A stretch of 64,000 nt of DNA from Sphagnum compactum (lineage: Eukaryota). Made by a program: the position numbers and the translations under genes. The DNA lies in contig OZ234493.1 of NCBI GenBank assembly GCA_965153455.1, positions 23,178,213-23,242,212 on the forward strand, written 5' to 3'. The notes beneath the pieces are model-generated. The model saw only the letters and a list, made by a program, of their open reading frames with translations, ran no database searches and was not told the origin of the DNA. Every line of letters starts with the position of its first letter. Position 1 is the stretch's first letter. Of this stretch, positions 3,699 to 61,170 are shown piece after piece.

Positions 3699-5477
3699 GC
3701 TTGCCCACTGGATTTTTTGAAGGCTAAGGTACTGGCTGTCCAGAACAGTTCTATATTTCAATTGGCCTATATCAACCATAATTTGTGTTTATTTATTGCT
3801 GGTGCAATTGTGTCTGCTGCTCTTGTTCCTTTGAGAGGTTGCACCTGGTGATCATGTGCACACACTATGATCATTTCATGAAGTTTTATACTTTCCCATT
3901 ATTTTACATAATGCAACTGGAAACAGTGTAATCACAGGGAAACTGCTGCTGAAAAAACTAGTCTTCTGTAACTAGTTTGTTGCCCTAATTGTAAGTAATA
4001 TAGTGGTGTGTGAAGGTAGATAGCAGATATGTTGGCCATCCAGTAATTCTCTCAGCCCACAAGGACTTTACACAGATCAAACCTGGCACTCATGAAATTT
4101 CCTGGCTACTTTTCTTTATGCTGTTGGGTTACCTATGGACCTTCAATCATTCCATTTCAATATCCATGCTTCAAGTTCCTTCCAATTTGTACACATTCCC
4201 ACCCTCTTGATTCTCAGCCTCATCAATCACCTCTTCTTCCTGTTAGTCATTGGCTGTGTTTGAGGATTGCTCCAAAATTGCCTCATCAGTTTTGTCTTGT
4301 TCATCCTCAGATTCCAGTTTCTGGCCTGCAGAAATTAGCCACCTCAACCAACAGATTAAACTCTTTACAGAGTGCTGTTTTCTTGCATCATGAAGTGTAT
4401 TGGTTTAAGAATCACACACCTGACTTCCCACTGCTCATTATGTTGATTAACCAGGTGAACACCTTATGGTGGGCGGCAATGCTACAGTATTCTGCAGTAA
4501 GGTCTGAGTAGGTGGATTCAACAATTTTTTGAAAAACAAATCATCTTCAACAGACACTTTGGTCACTATCCTCAGTGTATGATCATTACCAGAAGATTAT
4601 GTCATAAAACTGGTCAAGAAAATGACAATCTCTGCCATCCGAGACCAGAATTTTCAAATGATGGGGCTCCATCTCCTACTGTTGTGGAAATTCTCTAGGT
4701 TTGCTGGACAAATTTGTGTGGAAGAATCATCAGTTGTCCACCTGGATTATGGTGACAGGTTCAACATACTGTTCTCACTTGTAGTTCTACACATATGCAC
4801 ATCCTCCAGCAGCAGCTTTTGATGACAAAAACAAACCCTATTTTAGAGCATGGACCAGGTGGCTGCAGACAGCATGTGATTTCTAAAGTCCTTGGAATCC
4901 ATTATCATTCTACATGGGCAACATAATTGCAATTAATGTGACCTCCATCACAAAGAGCTCAAGACACACACACATTGTCAGCACCATGTACTAGAAACCC
5001 AAAGGGCAATGTGACCAAAACAAGCACCCAGCAAGTTAAGGACCTCGAATTTCTTATATAAGAAAAATTAACTATTGTTTGATTACAGCCTTCAATAAAA
5101 AAGTTAGTACAAAACCCCCAAAAGTCTTTGTAAATAAACACATGGAAACCATCTCATTCTCATGTAGATTTCATTGCTGAAATTCACGGCACTAATATGG
5201 AAGTAAAATACCTACCTCTTACAATAGTTCAAATCCTTGCATGCTTGATCTAAAAGCTTGAAGACTGTGCCGTAGAATACATTGATCTTGGAGAAGAAAC
5301 ATAAGACCATGATTCCATGAGTGGTACCAGGCCACTATTCTTGACCATAAACACAGGATGGTCAAGCAGAAATTTAGAATCAAACAATTGAACCTGTGTG
5401 CCACATACAATATGGGGTCCCAAAAAGACCAAGGTGGGGGGGAGGGTATAGTGAAGGAAAAAGGTACCAGAGATAAA

Positions 5478-8400: not shown

Positions 8401-11003
8401 ACCTGGAGTCAACACATTACTTTAGTGATTAGGGCTTCTCCACAGATATTGCCAAAACCCAGTCCAGGTAGTGACCAAGTGTATTAAAAACCGGAACAGC
8501 ATAGTGCCAGGAAGACACATTTGAAAATTGTTTTGCCAATTTGAAACTCTTTAGATGGTTTTGAGAGTGCACCTTTTGCCTGACCCAGCTGACCTTGTCA
8601 TCAGCATAGCGTGGTGCCAGAATACAGCGCACCCCTGTGTTTTTGAAAAACTTCTTTGTTTCTTCGTCATGTGTGTTCATCACCCCATTCTGGAAACAGC
8701 GAACATGAAGTTGAGGAACTTAAAAAACCTTCACACCGTGAGCCTGGATATATTCCTTTAAACTTGTGATGACATCACAAAACGTAGAAAGACTATTCCA
8801 TGGTAAAGACACACAAACTTTCTAGATAGTAGCCAAAATCTAGCCTGAAAATAAATTTAAGCATGCAATGAGCTGACAAATAGTTGCAGAGCTACTAAGA
8901 ACATGAAGTCCAAAGGAGATCATTCATACTGTCTTAAGAAGACTGTAATCATTTGAAGTTCTGTCATCCCACTGTAACAGCAGAACACGGATGCCATCAG
9001 CGGACTTCTTCTTCAACAGTTCTCCCAATGTCAAATTCCCACCATCAGGGACTGGCCTGTTGTTGTCACGTACAAGCTTAATCTTGTCATAAATGGACCA
9101 CCCTGCTAGATATACCAAGTGATGTGCACCTGCAATGGCAGAACACATTTCCTCCCAACACCGATGCTGGTGATACTCAATACCACTTTCAAGCCAAATT
9201 CGTGGAAGTGTGCTGTCATAGATATGTGTGTCTTGGTAGAGAGTTAAGTCACATCCCTTTCGGAGGGGGAAATATGTGAAGGGGACCCCAAAAGAGTCTG
9301 GCCCTACCCCTTGTGTGTACAAGGGGACCTTTTCAACAGGCTGATAGGATACACGGAGGTGTAACTTTGCACCCGCATGACACAACTTGCCATTAGTATT
9401 TAGAACTTCAAACCAGTCATCAATGATGTCACCATCTAATAACTGCTCAACTGGAATCTTGACGTCCCCAATATGTTGTGAACCCAGCACATCCTGATCT
9501 TTGATTGTGAAGACCACCTCGTAAACATAATGTGCCACTGGGACTGAAAAATGTTCATTCCATTTGGGGTTTACATTGTTACTTATGACTCGAGTGCGTG
9601 CCACCCTGGCACCAGCAAGGACAACTATGACATAGGGGTCACTGGTGATCCCTGTCACATTTGCTGCAGCCTCTTTTGCTTTGGACTTTGCTCTTTGCAG
9701 TATGGATGGTAAACTGGATGTGGCTTGCCTAATCTTTTCAGAAAATATGTCCATGTTGGGCAGGTTTACAGCCTCATAGAGCACTACATCTAGAGTTCCA
9801 TGTAATAAGCAGCGCATGCTGGAGAAACCAGATCGCCTGGATGACATTGCCGTGCGTAGTGAGTCCGATTTTGTGGGGAGCATCCCTCCAGTAGGACCTG
9901 CAATATGCACATGAACATGCCTTTACTCAAAAGCATGAGAACAAAACCTCTGAGGTACTACTAGCATATTAAAAACCACACATTACCATATCAAACCATG
10001 AAGATTACAATGGGGATACCTGGATCATTGCTGTAGAGGGGTTGAGAACCATCAAACCGTTGGGACTGGAATGGCGCCTGTGGCCTTGGCATTACTTGCT
10101 CATTTTCAACAAAGGATGAAGCTGCTTACAATCCAAAGCCAACAAAGTCCCATGGGTTTTGCAGCTGTAGTCAGCTATACATGAATCTAAGAGACACCTC
10201 CAGACAGCTGGATCTTGTAACTAAAGCATGTGAAGTATTGAAAAATCTTTTGGTCCTAGCTCTCAGAGTCCAACATCTTTCATCTGGTGAGACAGATACA
10301 TTCATGGTTCAGAAGGTCAAATGATTGCAAACTTTGTGCTTGAGAATCAATTACTGTGTGGCTTGAGGCTGTGTCTGGAAGAGCAAATTTTACAGGTAGA
10401 GAAAGAAATTTGACCTGGTGATAGTCTAGGGTAAGCATCATAGCCCAAACTGTTGGAGCGGAAATCCTGTGCTGGAGCAGACTGACTGCCAATGTGAAAG
10501 CTTCCAAGGGATCCTCCAGTTCGTTGTAAATGTGGTGGCACACCAAACTGGCCTCCTAACCCTCCATCTTCATGAAACCTTGAGTTCCCAGATGGCAAGG
10601 GAGGATATGCCTGGGACTGTTGCATATAATAAGGAGATACGGGTTCAGTGACCTGGTTATAAGGATACCCTTGAAAATACAGGTTTGATGTGTTTTCCTG
10701 CGCATTCACCGGTGGATAAGGTGAAGAGTGCACATCTGGATACATTGAGCTTTCTGGAGATTGTCGAGGCTGATACCCTGCAGGGTTGTAAGAATGCACT
10801 TTAGGGTACAAAGATCCACTTTCAGATTCCCTTGCTGGTGGATACTGTGCCTCATTTGGTACAGGATAACCATAGACATTTTCGAAAAAAGAATTGGACC
10901 TCAAAGGAGGAGGGTAAGGAGGAGCTGGAGTTTGTGGTCCCCCAGGCCGCATTGGTTGATGCCCCCAGCTTCCTCCACCCCAATTTCCTGAATCTCCACT
11001 CAT
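5478..11003 (-). CDS. PLD: Phospholipase D, C2-domain type (beta/gamma/delta-like) with a Pro/Tyr/Ser-rich N-terminal extension, about 1085 aa
   Basis: 12 exons on the minus strand: 10415-11003, 10020-10121, 8930-9897, 8573-8689, 8208-8402, 7753-8004, 7317-7385, 7005-7152, 6661-6809, 6296-6469, 5918-6115, 5478-5774. All are GT-AG and total 3258 nt in frame. Motifs: C2 domain (LLHGTLDV...SDPYV...NPKWNEHF), HKD1 (HHQKVVIVD), [11 protein letters not shown]2 (HAKGMIVDD...[21 protein letters not shown]), C-terminus LPDDLTS. Confidence 0.95.
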
Positions 11004-11090
11004 GCTTCACTCATGGGAAAGCTCGCCCACTCTTACACCCTCTCTGACAAATGCTGATAATAGAAGTCACAACCTCCACCCCCACTACAT
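11000..11090 (-). promoter_or_regulatory. Two uORFs in the PLD leader (AUG-stop, and MSEA* overlapping the main ATG)
   Basis: ATGTAG at 11090-11085. ATG AGT GAA GCA TGA at 11014-11000 overlaps the main ATG (11003-11001). Both lie downstream of a likely acceptor tctcag| at 11097. Confidence 0.45.
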
Positions 11091-22202: not shown

Positions 22203-22835
22203 ATGTCGCGCAAAACACCATTCCAGCTCCCTCATGCTCTTGAGTTTGGCTTGCTAATCACCGGTTGTGACACGAAGTCCTTGGTCACTTCAGTGTTGTG
22301 CCGCTTCTGTGCGTGCTTCAAGCGCGCAGAACAACCAGGGGCCAAACGCCAGCGGACAGAAAACACCAAGTACTACTTGAACCCTTTCCGCCCGCAAGGA
22401 AAATTATGAAAAACACAATAGCAATCAACACCCTGTTGAATGGGAGAAATACAAAAAAGCTAGCAAGGAAGAAAAAATGGAGTTTTTTGAAACAATGAAA
22501 TATGTTTCGATCGAACGTTTCATCTACACGAGTGGCAATATCCTCGAATTCATTGTGGATTCGAAAATTGTGGAAGACATTGTTGCACAGCTGTTTTTTC
22601 GTCCTAACGACAACTTGGATGCGTTGTCCTTGGAGAAATCCATGGCGCTTTTCAAGAAAGTGCCTGACACCACGACCTCATATTGCATCACCGTAAAAAA
22701 CGTGAAACAATTCGAACTCGCTCTTGATCACACTTCTATTGGTTTGTCATTTCATCAAACATCTGCTGTTATTGATCAGCACAAAGAGGCGTTTGGGAAT
22801 GCAAAGCTGGTGGGCCCCAACGATCACATTGTCAG
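22203..22835 (+). mobile_element. Frameshifted, truncated transposase-like fragment with a BED-like zinc finger
   Basis: MSRKTPFQLPHALEFGL...CRFC...YYLNPFR continues as KENYEKHNSNQHPVEWEKY...EKMEFFE once a CCGC duplication (22388-22395) is removed, giving CxxC...HxxxxH. The fragment is a GC/CpG-rich island that ends abruptly at ~22835. Confidence 0.6.
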
Positions 22836-25447
22836 CCTATTTCTAATTAATTATTGTACATTCCGAAGATTTTTTGAAAATGATTATAAATTTTATATTT
22901 ATAAAAATGACAAACCTCCACCTTCTTTACCATTACTCTTATCAAATTTTCACATATTACATTTGGAAATTTTCACTTTCAAAATGAAGTTAAATATAAC
23001 CTTTCACATTAAAAAATCATAAATAAAAGTAAAAATATCAAGAAAATCCTTTCATATTGTCTTCTACTTTAACAATTCCAAAAGGAATGTGAAAGACCAT
23101 ATGAAGAATTTAGTGCAAAAAAAATTGACATGGTTATGCCTTTCCTTATTTTCCCATCACCAAAATTCATCATGCTTTTCAAATTCAAATTTAGATGATT
23201 TCAATAATTTCTTGATTTTTGGATTCAATCTAATTGAAATTGGTTGAGTTTGATTCAAATTTTAATTCAATTCAATTTTATGAAGATTAATCAAATTGAA
23301 ATTGAATTGAATTTGGTTGAATTGAAAATGACAATTATATTTCACCACATGTGATTAAAATTCAATTCATTTTATTTTGGATTCACTTGAAAAAATTGGT
23401 GAATTCGAATTTGAAATCCAATCCAATTCAATTTAGTTGAATCAATTTCAATTTGGTGAAATTTAATTGAATGTTATTGAATTGAATTTTGTGGGTTGAA
23501 ACAATTTCTTGAAAGTTTAGAAACCATTCACATCAAATGGTGGATTTTCTTGTTATCATGATGTCAAGAACTTTCTCATTTGTAGCAAAATGAAAGGGGC
23601 ATTTGTTTTGTTCATTTTGTCTTGAGGAAAAAAATGTGTTGACATTATGAAATGTCAACAATTTTTGTTGATGGTTATGAACTAGTTGACATTTACATTA
23701 TTTTCATGTCCATTAAGATGCTTATGATATTGACATTGGCTATGTGGTGTAAATATGATGAATGTGATAAAAAAAATTGTATGACATTGATAAAGTCCAT
23801 ATATGGTAATGAAGAAAATTTTAGCTTGGCATGTTTGTTTTCTTTTTTTGCATAAGTGCAAGATGTGTGGGAAGATAGAAAATAAGGCAAATGTCAACCA
23901 AATTAGTATGTGAGGATGTTTTTTAGGTTGTGTTGTTTTATGTGAATTGGGGGGGGTGGTTGTTTACCATCCTCAAAATGTTCCCAATAGCATCACACTT
24001 TTTATTCAATATGCTTTGCACAAAGTTGTCCTTTTTTCATCTACATAATTGGGCCAAGAAAGAGGTATTCCATACTTCTGGTCTTGAGAATAAAACCTTT
24101 TGTTTTGGGATGCTCCAAAGTTTTTCCCCTTCTTTGGTCCACAAAATTGTCGTAGAGGTCAAATGAACTCAAAACCTTTTTGACCCTACCTTGAATTGAC
24201 TACCAAGGATAACATTTAGGATGTGCCTTACATGGCCTAAACTAATGATGAGATACAATGGTGGCATAATGAATAAAACTAAATTTTCACAAAAGAAAAT
24301 TCATATTTTCATTAGTTTATCATCACTAATAGTGCAAAGCCCACATGATTTTAAAAATAGAATGATCATAAAAATAAAACTTAAATACTAATTTAACTTA
24401 AAACCTTAATTGTTAAATGATTTTGGATGTTTTTTGAAAAATGAATGAAAATCAATTCACATTTCTATTCTATTTAAACATTAAAAATGATAATGTCTTT
24501 ACCCCTATACAAATGTTTCTCCTTAAACATCTTAGTGACATTACTGTTTAATCATTATATTTTTGAATTGACACTATATAATCTTGCATTAATTTAGAAA
24601 TTTTTTGCCCGGCCACAAGGTTTTAATATTATTCAAACAATTATTTTAATCTTGGAATTTAAAAATAATTTTTCACCAATCCATATATTGCATTGCAGTA
24701 ATGATACAATTATTAGATGTTTGTATGTTGAATGTATGTAATGTTAATATATTTTATTTGATACATTACGTATAATAGATTTAATAATTAACATGTAATA
24801 ACCAATGTATTACAAATAATTATAAATAAGTGAAATATAATATTGCTTGTTGACATATCTACTATTGATTTTATAATGTAATATGAAATATTGATATCAT
24901 TTTTATTATTAATTAAGCTACACTAATGTTTTAAAATTTTATTTATTTTAGCCATAAACTATTTTGCATAAAAAATTGTTGCAACTTGTCAAAGCTTATT
25001 TCTTCATGAAAACATTCATAAGTTGTTATTAAATAATGAAATTCCAATGTGTTTTTCTTCAAACGGTTGGGAATTTTGTATGTTTATTTGTTATAAATGT
25101 GTACACCTTTGAAAAAAACTTCAAAAATGAATTCTCTTTTGTTTGGATTGAACAAAAAACGAAAAAAAATGTTAGATTTTGATTTATAAAAACATTTAGT
25201 GTAATTTTGATGTATGATCTTTAAATTTTTGTATTGTGCAATATAAAGTGGTTGTAGGTTGACAAAGACAATGAAATGTTTGAAATGTCTCAATCAAGGT
25301 TCAAACATCATTAACTATAGCCAACTGTCTGCTTCAGACCTCAATCAAATCCGACCGTTGGATCAAAACCTAGAGGCCTGTAATTGGGTCTGTCGCTCCT
25401 TAATTGGGAGCCATATTCATGATGATTTGGGTAGTTGTAAAACTGCA

Positions 25448-26848
25448 CTACAGTTGCTGAGCACAAGCGTCGTTGTCGAGTCCTCCCGGGCCACCGAAAT
25501 AGAAATAGCTTCCTGACGAAGACGACCCGGGATTATTCCCTGCTTCAAGGTTGTAGCAATTGGCATCAGTCACAGCCGCGTAGCTGAAATTGGCATCATA
25601 GAACTTGCCAGAGTAGTCGGCGTATGTGACTTGGTTGTGGTAAGCGGCAACGGGGAACCCATTTTGGGCAAAGGCACCGGATCCCATCCCTGTGGTTGTG
25701 TGCCCATTTGTCCTGTCTGACGGAGCTATTTCGCCGCCCCATTGTAGCTGATCGGCACCCGTTTGTAGAGTGGTGTAAATCGCTGAAGGCCAGTACCCAA
25801 CCCATGTGCCTTGGACATTCAACCACCAGCCAGGGGTCTGAGAGTCGTAGACTATGCTAATCCGCACCTCGTATTCGCTGTTTGCATTCTCACCCAGTGA
25901 AGTGTATGGCGCCAGGACTCCTCCTAGTACCCAAATACGGTTTACCTGAACAAACCCTGCACAATGTAGATTGTAGCAGCCCGTGCCCTGGTATGCATCC
26001 ATTGTCCAGTAGATGAAGAGATGAGGAGCTAGAGGGAAGTTGGACGGATGCAAGGCTGGGTATACGTGCCACCCAGTTTCCGCAGTGTTGAGGTCATCAT
26101 TTGCATAAGAGCCAGCAAGTACCCACACCTGTGAAAGACTGAACTCAGAATCTGGATCTCCAATGATCGGGTCGTTCACGCTGAGAGTTGTTCCCTGTCC
26201 TTTGTATGCTCCCACTTCCCTTGCCATTGAGATGATAGCATATTCATGTGCAGGTGCACCCAAAGTGTCTGGACGTGAATAATCATCTTCCGGCCGGTGG
26301 TGTTTTCTGAAAGCAATCTGTTCTGGTTCGCTTCGTTGCACTGGGATGGAACCTTCAGGACATCCCCCGTGCTCCCTGGCAAAGGCTTGTGGGTGCGGCT
26401 GATCATGATCCACCGGTGCTGAAGAAACATCAACTTCTTGTAAATGCAAAAGGTCAGACGATGGTACCATGTGGATGATGTGATTCTTGAGAGCAGGGTG
26501 ATGGGCTGCAATTTGATGTTCCACCGGGACGCAATCTACCCAGCTTCTATCTGATAGTTGGAATGACTCCACAGCAGGGCCATGCCTAGCTGCTGCAGCT
26601 GGTCCACTACTGTTGCTGCTCGGGTACAAATAAGGTTGTAATCGTTTCGAACCTCGATCATGACGCGGCAGACTTCTCGACGCTTGAGATGACTGTACAA
26701 ACAGTAGCAGCTGAATAAATGTGATCAGTACAGCAACAATCCAAAGTCTATACGCCAAATTTCTCCTTGCAGCTCCAGTCCCACCGGATAATCGACCAGA
26801 TCTTTTGAAAGTCTCCATGGAAATTCCTTCTCTCTTGATACCTTTCAT
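25448..26848 (-). CDS. Neprosin-family glutamic peptidase (propeptide plus neprosin domain), 466 aa, uninterrupted CDS
   Basis: N-terminal hydrophobic segment. Propeptide motifs DCVPVEHQIAAHHPALKNH and CPEGSIPV. Catalytic-domain motifs HEYA, EFSLSQVWV, AETGWHVYP, LFIYWTMDAY..TGCYNL.C.GFVQ, GYWP, WGGEI, HTTTGMGSG and FYFGGPG. Confidence 0.93.
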   Translation of the reverse strand: MKGIKREGISMETFKRSGRLSGGTGAARRNLAYRLWIVAVLITFIQLLLFVQSSQASRSLPRHDRGSKRLQPYLYPSSNSSGPAAAARHGPAVESFQLSDRSWVDCVPVEHQIAAHHPALKNHIIHMVPSSDLLHLQEVDVSSAPVDHDQPHPQAFAREHGGCPEGSIPVQRSEPEQIAFRKHHRPEDDYSRPDTLGAPAHEYAIISMAREVGAYKGQGTTLSVNDPIIGDPDSEFSLSQVWVLAGSYANDDLNTAETGWHVYPALHPSNFPLAPHLFIYWTMDAYQGTGCYNLHCAGFVQVNRIWVLGGVLAPYTSLGENANSEYEVRISIVYDSQTPGWWLNVQGTWVGYWPSAIYTTLQTGADQLQWGGEIAPSDRTNGHTTTGMGSGAFAQNGFPVAAYHNQVTYADYSGKFYDANFSYAAVTDANCYNLEAGNNPGSSSSGSYFYFGGPGGLDNDACAQQL

Positions 26849-34645: not shown

Positions 34646-36990
34646 ATGGCAGGAAGAGAAGTGAGAGAGTATACGAATTTGAGTGACCCGAAAGGTGAGT
34701 TTGCTTATTATTGCTGTTGTTTGTTGTTTTGTCACATTTTGTTGATGTCCAAATCTTGTGTTGTTTTGTCAGTTTTTTGAATGAATCGTGTGATTTGGCG
34801 TTTTGTTTTGTTTCTTTTCAATTGCTTGTTTTGCCTTCAGCAATCTGTGAGGAGGTACATTTTGATTGTGTGAAAAAGAAACTGTTGTTTCTTCATGACG
34901 TTCTCTCTCCCTCTCTCTCTCTAATGCTGCTGCTGTTTGAAATAAGGACATGCAAGCAGACAAGAAATGGAGTGCCAAGGGTGGTGGTGGCAAAGACAAG
35001 ACAGACGATGAAGATGTTGCGTTCAAGCGTATGGTAGCCAAGGTTAGTGCACCTGGGGCCTGTTGAAAGAAGATCCTAGCAGGCAAGACTGTGTCATCAG
35101 GCTCTCATAGATAGCAATATGGCGTTTACAACTTAAGTCACAGAGAGATGCAGTTTGAGCACTTATTTATGCTCTGAACTTTCACAAAATGCCTTTTTCC
35201 TGTACCTCCTATTGCAATGGGAAATGTATTTTCTGAGGGATTCTCTGTCAACATTGAAAAAAGCCTAAAGACCTAGGACCAGGCAATTCATTACAGGATT
35301 GAACTTCAAGGTAGTGGTACTGGTGATCTGATCTGATAAGGCTAATTTCTGCAGTGCCTTAGATTGTGAGAAAATCATACTACTGGACACTTTGATCTCA
35401 GGGCCTTAAAATCCTTTAAGCAGTTCAGTTGAGAGAGGGGGACAAGGTGGAGTTGAACTTTTTCCTGAGAACTGGCCCTGACAGGGAATATGGCGCGACA
35501 TCTGGGCTCGGATGGTGAAAACAGATGCAGGAAGTGGCTGGTGAACGTGGTGGCTACCTACATGGCCGAGGCGGTAACTGCTTACATTGGTCATGATGCA
35601 ATGTCCTTGTTAATGATGGTTGTGAATTGCTTGATTAGATCTCCATCCCATAGCAGAGTGTACCTGAGGAATCAGCTTGTTAATACTTTTGGTTGCATAT
35701 GAATTGCTCCACAAGAAGGGTCAAGAGAAACTTTGCAGGTTCCCCTTCAGTTTCTGCTGTGTGTGTGTGCGGGTGCCTCTCTCACTCTCTCTCTCACTAT
35801 ATGTGTGTGTGTGTGTGTGTGTCCATTTCTTGAGCTAATGACTAGGCATGATGTATGGATCAAACAGCTCTGGATAGTGATGACTTGCTGTACCTGAAGG
35901 AGCAAATGGAAGCTGAGGATGATGCAGAGCGCCTGCGGCGACGAACAGAAAAGCGGGCTTTTGCAGCCTTTAAGATATCCAGACATCTTTCTTAAGTAGT
36001 TTTGATTCACAAGACAATCAGAGTGTACCTCCTCATGAGGTTGTTTAAAATATGTCTGTACAATCAAGTGGAAGATCATGCAGAGCAAGGTGTTCAGCTG
36101 AGAGACATCAACAACATTATGAGGGGTCCTTTCAATGCTGGATTCTTTGGCTAAATTGTTGCCTTTCTCTGACATATTGTCCAATGTCTTGACCTTCATG
36201 GTATTGGTAGGTATTTCTTGAGACCATTCTGGAGTGCTAAAGCAAGCTCCACCACTCCTGGTGGAGCTTGCAATAGCACTCCAGATTGATAAAAAATGGA
36301 CTCCATCATTGTAGATGTTGGATGGGAGTTCATTGAGTTGCCAATGATGGAATGTTGCCTTAACAGAAGTTAGCACAAGGCAGCGAGCTTGGTGGATGCG
36401 GCTTCTGTACCCTCTCTTCCCCCCATCCGTGTGGAGCCCAAGCCACGAAGTGGAATTCGGTAATAACTGTTGACCAGTTTGACACTAGATACCAGTTATG
36501 TGTCATGCTTTAGTGGGAGAAGGACAGTCTCTGGTGTGCTAAGCAGGCCAAGAGAAACTGAAGGCTCTGTTTTAAGACTGATTTCTTTTATTCACACCAA
36601 CACTGCTTAAAAGTTTGACCATATGTGTGGCCAGGGTCTCTTTGTTGCTACCAAAAATGAAGTTTACTAGTGTTTGAATGGGGTTTCAGGCAACAGGTGC
36701 TGGTAAAGAACATTCTGGAGGTGAAGCCAAAGCGTCTTACCAGAGTAGCCCACAACAGCACAGGTGCCGGAACTCCTAGCACAAGCAGCCCTGTAGGACA
36801 GATGACAAACAAGCCTGATGCTGGTGGAGCTTCTCAAGAACCAGCAAAAGTGGAAGCTAAGGTTGCCACTGGTGGTCTGTTGGGGTTGGCCTATGAGAGT
36901 GAAGAAGACAGTGACCCTGAGATTGAGCAAGTGCCTGCATACACAGAAATGAAGGCACAAAGAAGGGAATCGCAGACAGACCTTTTGTGA
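34646..36990 (+). CDS. Conserved uncharacterised plant protein, 223 aa, possibly distantly FAM192A/NIP30-like
   Basis: Exons 34646-34694, 34960-35042, 35525-35573, 35868-35974, 36377-36459 and 36690-36990, total 672 nt in frame. Translation: MAGREVREYTNLSDPKDKKW...AFKRMVAKMQEVAGERGGYLHGRGALDSDDLLYLKEQMEAEDDAERLRRRTEKRAFAAFKKAASL...RVEPKPRSGIRQQVLVKNILEVKPKR...GLLGLAYESEEDSD. I recall this as a conserved land-plant family. Intron 4 is AT-AC. Confidence 0.88.
35759..35822. repeat. Compound (GT)n/(CT)n microsatellite in intron 3
   Basis: gtgtgtgtgt...ctctcactctctctctc...tgtgtgtgtgtgtgtgtgtgt read directly. Confidence 0.8.
35975..36376 (+). other. U12-type (minor spliceosome) AT-AC intron
   Basis: 5' site AAG|ATATCC, branch-point-like GCCTTAAC at 36357-36364, 3' site ...AGCAC|AAG. 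Removing it joins AFAAFK to KAASL in frame. Confidence 0.85.
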
Positions 36991-39900
36991 AAGGTACTGC
37001 AAATGGTAGAAATGTTTTAGAATTGTTTGTCCAGAATGTTTGCCAGGATGCTGATATTTGTGATCATAGTAAATATGATGAAGATGAGGATGGACTACAT
37101 TTACGACACAACACTGGGTGGAATCATGTGCCTGAGTGGTGTCTGGTTTCTTATCTAAAATTCTTCTTCCATCTTACTGAGTTGAACTGTAAACACTCAT
37201 ATTTGCAGCTTGGATTGTGTCCTTTTGACTCTTAGATCATATTGTGTGACTTGTCATTGTGAAACAGCACCTGGATAATGGAGTGCAAATGGAAGTTGGC
37301 TCCTTCAGCTCTCAACTGAGAAGGCTATTCTTACTGTAGATCAAATGCCTTCTTGCAGAACATTCTTCATGGATGTGGTTCATGAATTGTAGAGTTCTGG
37401 AAACCTAGTCTAGGATACCAATGTGCACATTTTCAAGAAACAGATACCAGCAACCAAATTTACAGCTGGCAATAGGATGGTTTCAGTTTTGTTTCAGCAA
37501 AATGGAAATGTAAGAATGACAGTCAGGTTCATAAGTCAGTAATTCAACTTGCACTAGGACTTGCACTGCAAGCATGACTCCTATTGAGACAAACTGCAAA
37601 CCCAAGCATCCTTTCTATTTTGCACCCACCTTCCTGGGATCTCTCTGCATTCACTTGCATGGGGATTTGTTCCTGCTAAAGGGACCTGACCAGTTAGATC
37701 TCTGACTGAGGGCTGCTCACAGGGAGACTGCTTTTGAAGAGCTTCAGACCCAAGGTTCCCTATGCAGGTCTTTAACTAAATATTTTGAAGTGGCAATTCC
37801 AGCAAATGTGAGAGGAGATTGCATCAGACCAGATTGTCGCCCTCTCTTTTTGTTCACAGGTGTTTGTCTCCATCAAAAGTTTCCTCTTCATCAAAGATGT
37901 TTTGCTGCGGTGTCAAGCCCATTAATCCTAGGCAGAACATTGGCAGTGAGTACTTATTTTGCTCTGCTGTTGGCCATGTGGATGGCTTATACCCTGGCAA
38001 ATACCGAAGCAATGCAGTGTGTAATCTAGTGTGCTCCATTGTTGAGTCAATTCATGTGAGACATAAGGCATGTCGTAACATTCTGGCCTCTGGGATGAGG
38101 TCGTAGGACAGCTCATGTATTTCTACCTTCATTTTGGTGTCCTGCTTGTGTTTGGTACAGTGGAGCCAGTTGGGAGTTGCTCTAGTGAGTTATCACCAGA
38201 TGGTGAGAACATGGATTGTGACAATTTGCAGAGGGAGAAGAATTCAGACCTGCCATTCTGATGGTGATTTGATCTGCTGGTGATCAAGTGCATTGAAAAG
38301 ATCCACATCTGGGTGGAAAACTGTGTGGGAATGTATGAGTGGCATGGTGTGTGACCTCTCTACCATATATCTTGGCATTTTTTTCATTTTCTGGTCAAAG
38401 TTCCAAGATAAAGCTGCATGGAATTGGATGATGCTGATGACTTGGGTGACCTGAAAAAACCATGATGAGTTACGATTTCAAATGGTGACGGGTGAGTTAA
38501 GGTTTAGGGAAGTAGACGATGTGGATCTCTAGTAACTTCTTGGATCTAGCTGTGAAACAAAGTCCTCAAGGTATATCTTATGATATCTTTGACAAATGAT
38601 TTGGTTTTTGTTTCTTGGTCCTTTGTTCTCTGTTTGTCTTTCCTTTAAAATTCTCTGTGGCTTGTTGAAGAAGTGTTAACCTTGCTTTGCTTTTTCTTAA
38701 TTGTTAGAATGGAGATTTCTTGATTCTTATGAGAGATATTTAGGTGAATGGTCAATGTGGATCATGAGTGGGGCCTGTAGTAGCGCTCAGGGCTGATTGA
38801 CTTCTGTGGAAGCTTTGCCAGCTCTATTTTGGTGTAGGTTTGGGAGTTAAAATTCATGAAATTTCAGTCCATAAGGCACAAACATTGAAAGGTGCATGTG
38901 GTCATTTGTGCCATGTACAGATGACAAAATATATGGAAGATGTTAGCTGCTGTTTCAGGTGGCTGAGATGAGTTCAGTTACATTTACAACATTTTTTAAC
39001 TGTCTCTGTATACAGACAGGGTTATAGTATTGTGCAATAATATATAGATGTTGAAAAATAGGCTTGTGTGCAGGTGTGAAGAAAAATTGTTATGGCCAAT
39101 GAAATTGCTTGATTTGGTGGTCTGAATTCTTTTCTTCGTTATCTTGTTCAATGTGTAACAGTTCAATGTGTAATAGTTCAATGTGTCATAGCTACTGTAG
39201 TACCTTGGCAACTTCAACACATGTTTGTTGAATAATTAATGCATTTTTCATTTTGACAAATAGAATATTCTGGAAGACTCAATGTTTTCCTTCACAATTT
39301 TTTGTCATTTGGTTTTTTTTTTTTGTGAAAATTTCAATATTTCTGAATATAATATAATTAGTGTCGAACCTACCAACTTCCAAGGTGGTAGTGTATTCTA
39401 TTTACAGACAAGGTTCTTGCACATTCCTTGTGCACTTTGATTTATATTATGACTTCACAACCTTCTTGACCCATCAACAAGTGGGCGCTAATGGATTGGT
39501 TGTTTATTTGTTCTGTCCTACAGAGGCATTGTGGCAACACCTTCTGAGCGGGTATAGGGGTCAAAGAAACAAAAGTTGGCTGAATGTATAAGGTTATAGA
39601 TTCATGTGTAAGTTTTTATTGGCCCAAGTTAATGGACAAGCATGTGTAGATTTTGGATGCACCCATCCAATTGATGGGTTGTTTTGAAATCTACCCATCT
39701 ACTTGTTGGGTTTCTTCTCAAAATATCAATGTTGGGTGATTGATTTAATCAAGTTTGTATATCATTCTATTTTTTGGGTTGTCATTGATTGTTTTTTTTC
39801 ACGAGGTTTCATATCACTATGAAATGTAAAAAAACAATTCATATGACTAATTTTTTAAACAAAATATGTTTGATAAACATACAAATAATTAGTTTCAATT

Positions 39901-55969: not shown

Positions 55970-58900
55970 TCACCAATAATCCCTGCAAGAACAAACACCG
56001 CACTCAAAGTGATGGAAGCGATTGGCATCCCTGACAATGATTGCTCTCCCAACTAGTTTTGCAATGAACTTGGTGGAAGTGTGGCAGTCCCCACATACTC
56101 GGAGATTCTTGAAAATCCGGAGTGTAGTACCAGGAGGTGTGCTGATGAGCCCAAATGCAATAGCCAGTTTCTCACTATGGTGACACAAATGATACACCTT
56201 TTCTTCTTCCTCCACATCATGTAGCACAAATTTTGTATCTGGCACATACCCAGCCTCTTGCATCTGCCCGTACAATCGCTTCAGTTCTGCACGGATTTCT
56301 ATAATTTGGGGATGATCTTGATCATCTACTACAAATGTATGCACCTCATTATTAACTTCAATCCAGGTAGGACCAGGCTGTTTCTTCACACCCCTTTCCT
56401 TTCTCTGTGATTGAACTTTCTCACTCAGATCCGACTTGCCAGCAGCAGCATAGATGTTTGATAGCAGCACATACCCTGCAGCATTTCCAGGGTCCACTTC
56501 CAGAATGTGCTTTGCAATGCGTTCTCCCATTTCCACATTACCATGAATTCTGCAAGCACCAAGCAAGGCCATCCACACAGCCACATCTGGTTTACAGGGC
56601 ATCATCTTGATCATATCCTCTGCCTCATGCAGATGGCCGGCACGCCCAAGAAGGTCAACCATGCAGGTGTAGTGTTCCAATTTTGCAGAAATCTTGTGAA
56701 CTGTGCTCATGGAACCAAAAGAGCGCAGGCCTTCACACAACAGGCCTGCATGACTACAAGCGGACAGAAGACAAACAAAAGTGACATCATCTACCTCTAT
56801 ACCTTCTTCACACATTCTTTCAAAATGTGCCAGAGCTTCCTCACCATGCCCATGCAATGCAAATCCTCCAAGCATAGCATTCCAAGAGACCACATCTCGT
56901 GACGGCATTGTGTTAAACACTCTCCAGGCATCCTCCATGCTCCCACATTTGGCATACATGTCAATTAGACTATTACCCACAAAGACATCGGACTCACAGC
57001 TACTTTGAATGATTTGTTCATGAACACGCCTTCCCTCTTCAAGTGCCACTACACTGGCACATGCATTTAAGACCACCATGAAAGTCACAGCATTTGGTAG
57101 CACACCTTCCTGTTGCATTTGCCGAAATAGTCCCAATGCCTTCTGTCCTTGTCCACATTTCACATGCCCCAACATCATGACATTCCAAGAGACTAGATCA
57201 CGGGACACCATCTTGTCAAACACTCTGCAAGCATCATCCATGCTCCCACATTTGGCATACATGTCAATGAGGCTACTCCCTACAGATACATCTGACTCAC
57301 AGCCACTTTGAATGATCTGCTCATGAGCACATCTTCCCTCTTCAAGTGCCACTAGACTAGCACATGCATTTAGGACCCCCATGAAAGTCACAGTGTTTGG
57401 CTGCACACCCTCCTGTTGCATCTGTCGAAATAATTCCAATGCCTTAAGTCCTTGCCCATATTTCACATGTCCAAATATCATAGCAGTCCAAGAGACTACA
57501 TCCCGTGATGGCATCTTGTTGAATACTCCCCAAGCATCCTCCATGCTCCCACATTTGGTGTACATGTCAACAAGGCTACTTCCTATAGAAATATCTGATT
57601 CCCAACCATTTTGAATGATCTGTTCATGAGCACGTCTGCCCTCTTCAAGTGCCAGTACACTCGCACAGGCATTCAGGACCCCCACAAAAGTGACCAGATT
57701 TGGTTTCACACCTTCCTGTTGCATTTGTTGAAATAATTCCAATGCCTTTTGCCCCTGTCCAGATTTCACGTATCCAAATATTATGGTAGTCCAAGAGACC
57801 ACATTGCGTGAGGGCATCTCATTGAACACTCTTCGTGCATCCTCCATGCTCCCACATTTCCCATACATGTCAATAAGGCTATTCCCTACAGAGACATCAG
57901 ACTCGCAACCACTTTGAATGATCTGCTCATGAGCACACCTGCCTTCTTCAAGTGCCACCAAACTTGCACATGCATTCAGGACCCCCACAAAAGTCACAGG
58001 GTTTGGTTGCACACCTTCCTGTTGCATTTGTCGAAACAGCTCCAAGGCCTTCTGCCCTTGCCCACATCTTATATGTCCAAATATCATGACAGTCCATGAT
58101 ACCACATCACGTGAGGGCATCTGGCTGAATACTCTCATAGCATCCTCCATGCACCCACATTTGACATACATGTGAACTAGGCTACTGCCCACAAAGATAT
58201 CAGACACGCATCCACTTTGAATGGTCTGTTCATGAGCATTCCTCCCATCTTCAAGTGCTCGTAAGTTAGCACATGCATTAAGTACTTGAACAAAAGTGAA
58301 TTTGTCAGGACAAGTACCTTCTTGTTGCATCTGTTGGAAAAGCTTGATTGTGTTTTCATATTGACCAGCCTTGACAGATCTTGCAAGCCTTTTATTCCAT
58401 GAAAAACTGTCCAATTGTAAAGTCCCTGGTGCTATTGCCACCATCTCTGTTGCTACCCATGGAGGATTTTGTCGGTCCTGAAGCCAGAGTGCCTCTTGTG
58501 TCTTTTTATGCTTGAAGTCAGGGTATCTTGCATTCACCTATTACCAAAAATCCCAAAAATCCAAATCAAGCTAATCAGCCATGGCTACCTCACAGCTCAG
58601 GCAGACCATGCTGTAAGGACTGAGGAAACCATATTGACATCCTCCATCAGGAAATTGGGACAAAAATTATTCACCTTCTCTGGTCTGTTATCCCACCACT
58701 GTGAAGGATCTGAAAAGAATTTCCGCCAAAGTTTTTCTCTCTGGCCTGCATAGACTGCAGTAACCAATCAAATGCATGCAACCTCACATGGACTTTCATC
58801 ATTGCATGGCATCTACTACATTCATCTATGAGCCACAATGCTGGAGATTGCACTTCCATCAGTTGTCACATACACTATCAGTATACAATTCAATCCAGCG

Positions 58901-59676
58901 TTTAATTTCGAAAAGTTTCAGCAAGTGCAGTTGTTATGGCCTCCTCCAATTTGCACAATCCCATGGATATTTTTTAGTGAAGATCTGTGCGATATTTGTA
59001 TGTTCAGAATTGGAGACAAAAAATTACTTCAAAATTTCAGTTCAGTTTGATGTCACCCCATGCATGCAGGCCATGCTTTTTCCATCTCTGACAGATCTTG
59101 CATGGATTGTATCAGATCTTGTAGATTCAGATAAACATAGATTGTGCCAGAGAGGGTTCAAGTAAGACATTGCATAACTAGATTACTCGGCATTTATTAA
59201 CAGCGACATTCATTCAAAAACCCAAGCCTGAGAACTGACCTGCTGCAGTTGTTCCAACATCTCCACCACAAGAGGCAAGGGCCCTGTGGCCAGAACCTGT
59301 CACGTGCGATTCATATTGTCCAATGCTTCAGAGAAATCGCTCAATCCTGACTCTTTACCGAGCTATAGATTAATACGTACGCATGATGAAAGAGAAGAAT
59401 GACGCGAAGCTTGCCGAACCAAGCAGGACTCTGAGTGTCGCACTAAATCCTTAGGGCTACATGCTGCTTCAGGAGTCGGAAAACTCGCATAATGAAAAAC
59501 GACTGAACAACTCAAGACCTTGCTCAAATGTGAACTAATCGACATCACATACGGCACATCGGGACAAACAAAATTGCTGAGAATAGAACCAGAAGTAGAG
59601 GGAAAGTCTGTCACTCACGCAAGATAAGACCAAAGCGGCGGCGCGAGCCAAGGGTTATTTGTCGGCGCACTGCCAT
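55970..59676 (-). CDS. PLS-class PPR protein with E1/E2/DYW deaminase domain (C-to-U RNA editing factor), N-terminal presequence and OSB-type PDF motif, about 917 aa
   Basis: Exons on the minus strand: 59619-59676, 59240-59296, 58675-58745 and 55970-58537, all GT-AG and in frame (2754 nt). Five P-L-S triplets plus P2-L2-S2, E1, E2 and a PG box (QPGPTWIEV). HSEKLA and CGDCH are intact and the protein ends DYW. Confidence 0.93.
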
Positions 59677-61170
59677 GACATGTCACGAAGAAGAAGCCGA
59701 TACAAACCAAGCGAGAAAAAACAACCAACCTCTCCAACAGTTTTGGAATTCGCAATAACAAAGTCACCAGTGAGCAGAGCGTATCGGAAACCAAAACAGC
59801 TTCTTCAGCAGACTCTCTCAACTCACTGCTCGCTGCACAACTCCCGAGCAGATGAAATGAGTTGAGAATGTCCCTACACGACATGTTCCGTTTGAGTCTC
59901 CTCGCAGCTCTGCTCAAATCAGTGCCAGATGATTGCGCACAGGCGAGAAGCTACACCGCTACCGATCGACTTCTTGCGTGACGATAGTGTGAAGTCATGT
60001 AAGTTTTAGGGCTTGGGCCTTGAAGGATGATCCACTTCGGTTTCACTATGCTAACCACCATGTGTTTCCAATTTAGTGTGTTGAATATTTATCATCCAAA
60101 TGGATGTCATTCTCATAGGTCTTTTTTACACTGGCTAATGCTTCTCTCTCACACCTACATGTAAAGCACCCGGGAAAAATTTGTAGTGTATGTGGAGGGC
60201 ACCTTATATCCATTTATTTCCCTCTTACAAATTGGGAGGGATATTAGGCTTTACCTCTCAAGGATGGGAGGGAAATTATGCCTACTTGTAGGTGTAAGAA
60301 CCCTCCCACTATTTAGGAGTAGGCATAAGAACCCTCTCACTCATAGGCTTTGTGATCTACATAGGTTTGGTTCATGACAAATTTTGCCTTGTGCTTTGCG
60401 ATAAGTAAGCCCATGGGAGAGGAACATTCTTAAAATGTGGGGCTAGACTTTGTTTATCGTCTCATCCTAGGCTCTTTATTTTGAAAATGCCCTCTCCATA
60501 AGGTTTTACCTTTCACATAATGCACTGTAGAATTTTCACCTTTGTTATCTAACTTACCTCTAACCCATGATGGGCAATGTGGCAACTCTTGTGATTCCTT
60601 CGATTTACAAATGGCCCTTTGGGCAATTGTTCATGTCGCTTCGATTTCGATCTGCATGTCTTTTCAATTTTTTAAATGTGCATTATGTTGGTGAAGGCTT
60701 CCTCCTTCAATTCTCTCTATGTTCTTAAGCTTAAGCACACATGTGAACACCCTCATTCATTTCTACCAAGTTGTGAGGTGTTTTCAAGAGACATGCTCTA
60801 TTGACATTCTTGGTTATTAAAAAGCGTCAAACTAGTGTAGGTAGCTTGAGTGCATTAGGGTAGAACAGCCTATGAACGATCATTTAAGCATTCAGGGTAG
60901 TAGACTGGATCCAAGGAGAGGCTTCCATTGTTTCTAGTGTCCAAAAAAAATTTAACCCCTCCTATTGACGCATCTAGCACATTAAAAATCATCAAACATT
61001 ACAAAGCCAATTCCTAATTACCCAAGAAATTTCTTATATGTTGCTCTATTGCTATTAGAGTTGAAAAATGATTTGTAGAATTGAAGGTGGCACTCTTATA
61101 GCATTTTAATTTGTTTAAAATGAACAAGAAATGACAAAGTGAGAAGCTTTGAAAGGGGTCCAAAAAAAAA

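Follow-up and report, generated by a model that had tools for sequence, protein, structure and literature searches.

In the window, a 64-kb stretch of Sphagnum compactum DNA, a four-exon nuclear gene on the minus strand encodes a protein in which an OSB-type PDF motif precedes a PPR-DYW editing module, and we regard both the gene and this architecture as almost certainly real. From its N-terminus, the 917-aa product runs through an Arg-rich presequence, one PDF motif of ~50 aa, 18 PPR motifs, E motifs and an intact DYW deaminase. This order, pieced together from Pfam, the triplet register and PDF profiles, agrees with the original prediction of a PDF, PLS and DYW arrangement behind an Arg-rich N-terminus. 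The enzymes that edit RNA in plant organelles are DYW-type PPR proteins, which are also under development as programmable RNA editors. Judged by its domains, the window protein is very probably a PLS-class PPR-DYW factor for site-specific C-to-U RNA editing. The fuller explanation, in which it is a PLS PPR-DYW editing factor of a PDF-PPR family and the PDF motif serves as a grip on RNA, has in our estimate an even chance of being right.

Gene structure, transcripts and domains

The spliced minus-strand model (59676-55970; Table 1) consists of four exons in frame, 2754 nt in all, corresponding to 917 codons and a stop. Its introns measure 322, 494 and 137 nt, and all three have GT..AG ends. The three small upstream exons that had been proposed to splice in frame are borne out by this model and by P0304, an annotated Sphagnum magellanicum protein (CY35_08G102800, 917 aa) that is colinear with it, exon 1 included. 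P0304 and the window protein differ at 26 of 917 residues, with three differences in the 38-aa presequence and none in residues 39-91, which contain the PDF motif. The exon 2 peptide is kept in P0304 and in the paralogue models P0035, P0047 and P0016, and the N-terminal layout as a whole is repeated in paralogue models including P0034, P0023, P0035 and P0037. ORF-style gene calls of the paralogues P0056, P0059, P0064, P0070 and P0077 read through the position of intron 3. Within the window, tblastn with PDF-PPR proteins located only this one PDF-PPR gene.

Table 1. Features of the PDF-PPR-DYW gene, in window coordinates.
Feature	Position	Strand	Description
Upstream ORF, 8 codons	59655..59681	-	overlaps main ATG in a different frame; read from sequence
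Exon 1	59619..59676	-	start codon 59676-59674 and first part of Arg-rich presequence; GT donor 59618
Exon 2	59240..59296	-	remaining presequence and spacer; AG acceptor, GT donor
Exon 3	58675..58745	-	first half of PDF motif; motif start ~58740, residue 41
Intron 3	58538..58674	-	137 nt, phase 0, GT..AG; interrupts PDF motif
Exon 4	58537..55970	-	rest of PDF, PPR tract, E motifs, DYW, stop
PDF second half, exon 4 start	58451..58537	-	residues 63-91
PPR tract	56585..58408	-	residues 106-713; 18 motifs, 6 P-L-S triplets; Pfam and triplet register
E motif (Pfam E_motif), then weak E+ match	56357..56545	-	
DYW cytidine deaminase, DYW at end	55973..56251	-	Pfam and signatures; stop codon 55970-55972

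The joint between exons 3 and 4, which assembles the PDF motif, occurs in one RNA-library contig each of runs X1, X2, X4 and X13 (the X1 and X2 figures are identical and may represent one data set, and that X13 is an RNA library is a guess). In these contigs 137 nt are left out, bounded on the plus strand by CT..AC, which places the joint at 58537/58675 after the listed '+6' cut. On its shorter side the joint is covered by 46 letters in X13 and by 22 in each of X1, X2 and X4. Of the three junctions originally predicted, this is the one recovered from RNA; 59619/59296 and 59240/58745 were not found among the 15 joints listed from the RNA-library contigs, which contain 55 further joints. Because contigs cannot show absence, this says nothing against the junctions of introns 1 and 2, whose predicted positions rest on annotation.

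Contigs of the same RNA libraries also cover all three introns unspliced, and intron 3 is retained in an X4 contig as well. Annotated isoforms of the S. fallax orthologue vary at this end of the protein: P0302 skips exon 3 and is missing the whole PDF, P0297 starts downstream of the PDF, and P0298 is likewise without it. The frame of the upstream ORF is open in the S. fallax orthologue, where the exon-3-skipping isoform P0302 uses it. Given these isoforms, the gene may also give rise to PDF-less products alongside the PDF-bearing one.

Downstream of the PDF motif, the last-exon ORF matches Pfam PPR_2, PPR and PPR_1 at 385, 290 and 183 bits, and its PPR tract is made up of six 101-aa P-L-S triplets, that is, the 18 motifs originally counted. 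Extraction of the PPR code gave ordinary P/S code residues for these motifs. E_motif scores 61.5 bits (cut-off 27.3) and Eplus 18.9 bits, under its cut-off of 24. The deaminase was described as intact, and DYW_deaminase (PF14432) indeed matches over the full profile (1-93 of 93) at 144.3 bits in ORF residues 763-855; the zinc-site signatures HSE (HxE) and CGDCH (CxxCH) and the C-terminal DYW are all present in the translation. At the opposite end of the protein, the first 38 residues hold 7 R/K, 1 D/E and 6 S/T, and this composition is the sole basis for a putative targeting to mitochondria or plastids, including the mitochondrial-type presequence originally proposed. The corresponding segment is disordered in the predicted model of a paralogue.

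The PDF motif and the PDF-PPR family

Profile searches in both directions make it virtually certain that the N-terminal motif is homologous to the PDF motif of OSB proteins, as first proposed. A profile built from 12 PPR N-terminal fragments (A1) and searched against 1.84 billion proteins matched 1149 of them at E<=1e-3, 493 at <=1e-10, including the Populus nigra 'protein OSB1, mitochondrial-like' P0153 (E 3e-27) and the Populus alba 'OSB2, chloroplastic-like' P0200 (E 2.1e-21). A jackhmmer profile started from the OB region of the Populus OSB1-like protein recognised an OSB-like OB fold in 66 of 140 newly listed proteins; another 11 contain a PPR tract, and the remaining 63 contain neither. 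The reciprocal OSB-only profile, comprising 161 PDF domains from the 66 OB-fold proteins, scored 69.3 bits against residues 41-91 of the model (E 1.1e-14 scaled to 1.84e9 sequences), whereas 1000 shuffled versions of the first 120 residues reached 8.0 bits at most; the match is not due to chance. The window PDF keeps the conserved OSB residues; its identity to OSB PDFs has a median of 47% and a maximum of 64%, the latter over 50 residues of the Spirogloea muscicola OSB P0208.

The link to OSBs needed an exhaustive profile search, since word-indexed searches returned PPR-type relatives only and no named OSB. The N-terminal motif has no Pfam match; Pfam appears to lack a PDF model, which is seemingly why the motif has gone unnoticed on editing factors. 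A feature search of the ESM Atlas, started from the PDF segment of P0004, yielded nothing usable. The Pfam SSB model matched neither the last-exon ORF nor the exon-3 ORF, the OB-region profile detected no OB fold in the window protein, and only 38 residues precede its PDF; without an OB fold, the window protein is not an OSB. The available text of two papers describes the PDF only as an OSB feature, one of them confining it to green plants (PMC6963530, PMC4166229).

The original prediction took the gene for an exon-shuffled chimera, but a one-off chimera does not fit the distribution of the architecture. In one search, 98 of 99 matches were PDF+PPR proteins with one to three PDF matches N-terminal to the PPR tract, 51 of them also bearing a DYW domain and 9 being ORF-style calls in which the first half of the motif is missing. 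They come from seven Sphagnum species, Calypogeia and Diphasiastrum, and a separate search added a PDF-PPR protein of Adiantum; on the seed-plant PPR proteins matched in these searches the PDF is apparently absent. Dozens of paralogues differ in PPR code and all carry the PDF, so that a single genome has dozens of editing factors bearing it, and in nearly all Sphagnum members 13-22 residues separate its end from the detected PPR tract. An alignment of 50 family members has 16 invariant columns, 11 of them inside the PDF, and the invariant residues of the PDF include aromatic and basic ones (W, F, K, H, R) as well as D. No other segment of the family is as well conserved across the four plant lineages. 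The PDF-PPR proteins are, as far as sequence comparison tells, a large and old family of non-seed land plants. In line with the original prediction, the literature searched contained no published description of a PDF+PPR(-DYW) architecture; the original PDF paper (Zaegel et al. 2006) lies outside that search. The known range of the domain widens accordingly from OSBs to PPR proteins, and to dinoflagellate proteins with tandem PDF arrays; PDF arrays reach 13 copies.

As to origin, both PDFs of the Populus OSB1-like gene sit in a single exon with no intron inside them, so the intron that splits the window PDF is not shared with that gene. This comparison, in which the DNA of one OSB gene was read, leaves exon shuffling through a shared intron unsupported. 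A FastTree phylogeny of 309 PDF domains (52 columns) is itself unresolved: the PPR label changes 11 times on the best tree, while the starred branches force a single change, and the tree thus allows one origin of PPR-borne PDFs or several. Its 'other' class mixes PPR fragments with PDF-only proteins.

An AlphaFold2 model of the 312-aa paralogue fragment P0013, computed from a 50-row alignment, reached a mean pLDDT of 91.5 and a pTM of 0.77, and from residue 21 onwards, across PDF, linker and PPR helices, the means of its 10-residue blocks all lie in the range 81-98. This confidence, together with the short spacing of the two domains, supports a rigid coupling, and the AlphaFold2 output, which came without an inter-domain error map, suggests that the PDF is packed rigidly on the PPR tract. 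In P0035, the modelled PDF has block-mean pLDDT values of 79-90 over residues 41-100. For this model Foldseek found no relative in the PDB (best E 3.5) and VIA-align none among 48,161 chains (best Z 2.7), from which novelty of the fold does not follow.

Proposed role of the PDF motif

PPR proteins bind RNA with a known polarity, their N-terminal end lying towards the 5' end of the RNA. In the mechanism that we propose, the 18 PPR motifs would read a stretch of ~18 nucleotides that lies 5' to the C to be edited, which the DYW domain would deaminate. The PDF would be a compact folded domain that binds single-stranded nucleic acid regardless of sequence and is rigidly attached to the PPR solenoid at its N-terminal end. 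From there it could hold the RNA immediately upstream of the stretch covered by the PPR motifs, which would strengthen binding and prevent the site from folding. As such, the PDF would be a built-in helper in plants whose editing complexes are described as simple; for moss editing, a single DYW protein with few helpers is considered enough (PMC9459714). We hold a single-strand RNA grip in cis to be a tentative assignment, with a probability somewhat short of even.

The main rival to the RNA grip is that the PDF binds organellar single-stranded DNA, in transcription bubbles, R-loops or replication intermediates, which would concentrate the editing factor at nucleoids and let editing proceed co-transcriptionally. 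The OSB residues retained in the window PDF favour this, as does the biochemistry of OSBs: the PDF is the element responsible for ssDNA binding and in OSB1 is sufficient for it (PMC6963530, PMC6451138, PMC4166229), and both OSB1 and OSB2 reportedly bind ssDNA in preference to RNA (PMC4166229), a preference that weakens the RNA grip and favours a DNA tether. On the other hand, the PDF-PPR linker is short, conserved and confidently modelled, as would be expected of a joint binding surface more than of a flexible tether, and we consider tethering to nucleoid DNA unlikely, although a serious contender. The presence of the PDF on paralogues with different PPR codes is compatible with either role.

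Still less probable is a PDF that binds no nucleic acid here and instead oligomerises or recruits a partner, for example an OSB, nucleoid or editosome protein. AtOSB2 is reported to be a tetramer (PMC6963530), and PDF arrays of up to 13 copies are what interaction repeats often form, but what PMC6963530 and PMC6451138 assign to the PDF is ssDNA binding, not oligomerisation, and its invariant W, F, K, H and R are typical of nucleic-acid contacts.

It is very improbable that the PDF form is a minor or non-functional isoform, with the working protein starting downstream or skipping exon 3 and the N-terminal exons left over. The PDF-less S. fallax isoforms and the unspliced contigs would fit such a reading; against it, the exon 3/4 joint appears in contigs of four runs, the segment that would be dispensable is the best conserved of the family and unchanged relative to S. 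magellanicum, and a protein without exons 1-3 would have no presequence. That the PDF redirects the deaminase to organellar ssDNA is hardly credible, as only the co-occurrence of an ssDNA-binding motif with a cytidine deaminase speaks for it, whereas the full 18-motif PPR tract with its ordinary RNA-code residues and the E motifs form the standard apparatus for recognising RNA sites, and no observation here points to a DNA substrate.

Early land plants lack the helper proteins of seed plants, and the conserved PDF offers a concrete candidate for what gives their editing factors high affinity. A broader idea, that PDF-PPR-DYW represents an ancestral or early-land-plant editing design, whether physically coupled to nucleoid ssDNA or R-loops or equipped with an in-cis helper that takes the place of the separate accessory proteins of seed plants, seems to us doubtful at present. 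If it were true, the PDF of moss, liverwort, lycophyte and fern paralogues, set against its apparent absence from the seed-plant PPR proteins matched here, would mark a change of editosome design in evolution. The shared PDF module also links the machineries of mtDNA maintenance and RNA editing.

Comparison with known systems

With the PLS PPR-DYW editing factors of early land plants, exemplified by the PpPPR proteins of Physcomitrium patens (PMC9459714), the window protein has in common the P-L-S array, the E motifs, a complete DYW domain and a presequence. In both, the PPR-DYW part is encoded in one exon. What the window protein adds is an OSB-type PDF, placed after the presequence and ahead of the PPR tract. 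The extra domains recorded on Physcomitrium PPR proteins are RRM, LAGLIDADG, SMR, NYN, CBS and SAP, and the PDF is not listed among them in the part of the source available (PMC9459714).

The ~50-aa PDF motif is common to the window protein and OSB proteins, including Arabidopsis OSB1-4, Populus P0153 and P0200 and Spirogloea P0208, with profile matches in both directions. Unlike OSBs, the window protein is without the OB-fold (SSB-like) domain, and its PDF lies N-terminal to a PPR array, whereas that of OSBs lies C-terminal to the OB fold. A phase-0 intron falls inside the window PDF and is missing from the Populus OSB1-like gene. A parallel in design is maize PPR4, in which an RRM occupies the N-terminus (PMC9459714). 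Both proteins place a generic nucleic-acid-binding module N-terminal to the PPR tract, but in the window protein this module is a PDF rather than an RRM, and it is attached to a PLS-DYW editing factor rather than to a P-class splicing factor.

Gene model and domain content

The predicted 917-residue protein carries the domain features tested for PLS-DYW editing factors. In the exon-4 open frame, Pfam recognizes PPR families (PPR_2 at 385 bits, PPR at 290 bits), the E motif (E_motif, 61.5 bits) and DYW_deaminase over its full length (144.3 bits); an E+ match stays below threshold, and the N-terminal motif has no match. The PPR tract consists of six regular P-L-S triplets, in agreement with the 18 motifs counted in the original prediction, and the deaminase retains intact HSE and CGDCH signatures as well as its terminal DYW. 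Residues 1-38 are Arg-rich (7 R/K, 1 D/E), which fits a putative presequence for mitochondria or plastids alike. The four exons join into 2754 nt, or 917 codons and a stop; the last is an 855-codon open frame, and all three introns (322, 494 and 137 nt) have GT..AG ends.

Coordinates of the exons and of other domain-bearing frames in the window
Feature	Position	Strand	Basis
Exon 1	59676-59619	-	in-frame join read from sequence
Exon 2	59296-59240	-	in-frame join read from sequence
Exon 3	58745-58675	-	in-frame join read from sequence
Exon 4	58537-55970	-	in-frame join read from sequence
Neprosin activation peptide and neprosin domain, 466-codon open frame	25451-26848	-	domain match
C2 domain, 332-codon open frame	8927-9922	-	domain match

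Neprosins are a plant family of glutamic-type prolyl endopeptidases. Long frames at 10350-11006, 22381-23019, 35750-36484, 36670-37173 and 4047-4508 of the window have no Pfam match.

The RNA check proposed with the original prediction bears out one of its three junctions: the 58675/58537 joint, which assembles the PDF motif from exons 3 and 4, occurs in contigs of four public sequencing runs, and the 59619/59296 and 59240/58745 joints of introns 1 and 2 are absent among the joints listed (15 of 70). In these contigs the 137-nt intron 3 is skipped exactly, with canonical ends. Three of the runs (X1, X2 and X4) are moss or plant metatranscriptomes in which the shorter side of the joint spans 22 letters, the figures for X1 and X2 being identical, such that these may be one data set; it spans 46 letters in the fourth, X13, which is only guessed to be RNA. 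Contigs of the same libraries also pass unspliced through introns 1-3, and therefore pre-mRNA or DNA is present too. Across these introns (window 58538-59618, minus strand) unspliced metatranscriptome contigs have a depth of ~16-32, and adjoining exon contigs ~41-59; the unspliced contigs could be pre-mRNA, DNA carry-over or sequence of a related species.

Independent annotation supports the whole predicted exon structure. The spliced product has a colinear counterpart in the Sphagnum magellanicum protein P0304 (CY35_08G102800, 917 aa), from which it differs at 26 residues, three in the 38-residue presequence and none in residues 39-91. In paralogue models the presequence is likewise followed by spacer and motif. 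Some ORF-style paralogue calls (P0056, P0059, P0064, P0070, P0077) run into intron sequence directly past the first motif half and others (P0001, P0002, P0005) begin at the second half; the calls thus break at the same point, and the intron position is therefore common to the family. As counter-evidence, two annotated isoforms of the S. fallax orthologue BDL97_08G104700 depart from this structure: P0302 (895 aa) skips exon 3 with another start and frame, and P0297 (824 aa) starts past the PDF. An 8-codon upstream ORF (window 59655-59681, minus strand) runs across the main start codon in a different frame; this upstream frame is also open in S. fallax, where P0302 uses it.

Identity and distribution of the PDF motif

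By its sequence, the N-terminal motif qualifies as the PDF motif of the organellar ssDNA-binding (OSB) proteins. A profile of 12 short N-terminal PPR-protein fragments without PPR repeats, searched exhaustively against 1.84 billion representative proteins, gave 1149 matches at E<=1e-3, of which 493 reach <=1e-10 and 63 reach <=1e-30; many are 330-700 aa long and match the profile in 2-13 stretches. Among them are P0153, a Populus nigra 'protein OSB1, mitochondrial-like' (E 3e-27), and P0200, a Populus alba 'OSB2, chloroplastic-like' (E 2.1e-21), each with two C-terminal PDFs and weak upstream Pfam SSB matches. For 140 of the best 150 of the 1149 matches a class was assigned: 66 have an OB fold of the Populus OSB1-like type, 11 have a PPR tract, and 63, with neither, are fragments or PDF-only arrays. 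The OSB profile test called for by the original prediction came out in its favor: a reciprocal profile of 161 PDF domains, drawn only from the 66 OB-fold proteins, albeit originally collected by the PPR-derived profile, gives residues 41-91 of the protein a score of 69.3 bits (E 1.1e-14 after scaling to 1.84e9 sequences), versus 8.0 bits for the best of 1000 shuffles. The closest OSB PDF among the matches listed, P0208 from the zygnematophyte alga Spirogloea muscicola, is 64% identical over 50 residues.

The protein is one member of a family and not a one-off chimera. When the PDF region of the Diphasiastrum protein P0004 was searched against proteins 430-1371 aa long, 99 matches emerged from 103 candidates; by local classification, 98 of the 99 carry one to three PDF matches on the N-terminal side of a PPR tract, the exception being a Rhodiola kirilowii protein with four PDFs and no PPR tract. 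A DYW domain is also present in 51 of the 98; two or three PDFs occur in 11, all from Diphasiastrum, and nine rows with only the second motif half are ORF-style calls. The sources named for the matches comprise seven species of Sphagnum, a leafy liverwort (Calypogeia fissa, 5 rows) and a lycophyte (Diphasiastrum complanatum), with ~10 distinct PDF-PPR loci in S. magellanicum, more in S. fallax and ~25 in Diphasiastrum. The profile search adds a fern protein with two PDFs and a PPR tract (Adiantum capillus-veneris P0123); no seed-plant PDF-PPR protein appeared among the best 150 of its 1149 matches or in one word-indexed search. Of the 16 columns that are invariant across 50 aligned family members, 11 fall inside the PDF, making it the segment of these proteins under the strongest constraint.

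PDF copy number varies across these proteins. Sphagnum and Calypogeia PDF-PPR members seen have one PDF in every case, and those of Diphasiastrum (P0318-P0328, P0129, P0132, P0091) often have two or three before the PPR tract, paralleling the increase in PDF copies that the available part of PMC13393729 describes for OSB group III of seed plants. Two dinoflagellates, Effrenium voratum and Cladocopium sp., have tandem PDF-only proteins with neither OB fold nor PPR tract (P0083 with nine PDFs, P0088 with six, and P0081 and P0082). Three composite models (group P0080, P0111, P0101) combine an OB fold with 13 PDFs (Kingdonia uniflora), with three PDFs and a kinesin motor (Coptis chinensis), or with three PDFs and a long tail (Striga, 1063 aa, under the name of an ICR protein). 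Annotation may have merged neighboring genes in these models.

Predicted structure and possible role of the PDF

AlphaFold2 models the N-terminal fragment of the family protein P0035 (117 aa, 28-row alignment) as a disordered presequence followed by a confident small domain of helix, two short strands and helix (block-mean pLDDT 79-90 over residues 41-100), for which solved structures offer no fold relative (best Foldseek E 3.5, best VIA-align Z 2.7). In a paralogue fragment, P0013 (312 aa, 50-row alignment; mean pLDDT 91.5, pTM 0.77), block-mean pLDDT is 81-98 from residue 21 to the end, across PDF, linker and PPR helices. In Sphagnum members few residues separate the PDF from the detected PPR tract, and their number hardly varies. 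Taken together, the two observations suggest that the PDF is mounted firmly at the N-terminal end of the solenoid and does not hang loose.

From what is established for the family, we take the PPR-E-DYW part to be a site-specific C-to-U RNA editing factor. PPR motifs bind RNA in parallel, with the N-terminus toward the 5′ end, and the C deaminated by the DYW domain lies a few nucleotides beyond the last motif on the 3′ side. In OSB proteins ssDNA binding is attributed to the PDF motif, which in OSB1 suffices for it (PMC6963530, PMC6451138 and PMC4166229), and moss editing is thought to rely on a single DYW protein with few helpers (available part of PMC9459714). Our preferred reading, held tentatively, is that the PDF would grip the single strand without sequence preference, extending the RNA-binding surface on its 5′ side. 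Its main rival, in which the PDF would tether the editing factor to nucleoids through single-stranded organellar DNA, is favored by the preference of OSB1 and OSB2 for ssDNA over dsDNA or RNA, as reported in the available text of PMC4166229, and we consider it rather unlikely. A protein-interaction role of the PDF is improbable. That the gene yields mainly a PDF-less product is very improbable, and DNA deamination by the protein is the least credible reading.

Novelty, origin and relation to OSB proteins

We found no published description of the PDF-PPR/DYW architecture, the original 2006 PDF paper and supplements lying outside the search. The PDF motif together with 'pentatricopeptide' returned one general review only, no paper among the best 15 of 411 matches contains both 'PDF domain' and 'DYW', and literature searches with motif strings gave nothing relevant. 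The two Sphagnum PPR/DYW papers among the matches listed concern other subjects by their titles and abstracts, and the available part of the 2026 OSB family survey (PMC13393729) never mentions PPR. The genes themselves are already public, labeled 'hypothetical' or 'PPR' proteins; the finding is relevant to the RNA-editing and organelle-genome fields.

The intron comparison with OSB genes proposed alongside the exon-shuffling claim, made for one gene, does not link the two structures: in the Populus OSB1-like gene, read from a metagenome contig, both PDFs (residues 209-371) lie in the last of four coding exons and neither contains an intron, and the phase-0 intron that splits the Sphagnum PDF is therefore not inherited from such a gene structure. 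A PDF-domain tree gives no resolution, so neither the direction of fusion nor the number of events can be stated. The window's protein has the PDF in common with the OSB family but lacks the family's OB fold, and therefore shares a domain with the OSBs without itself being one.
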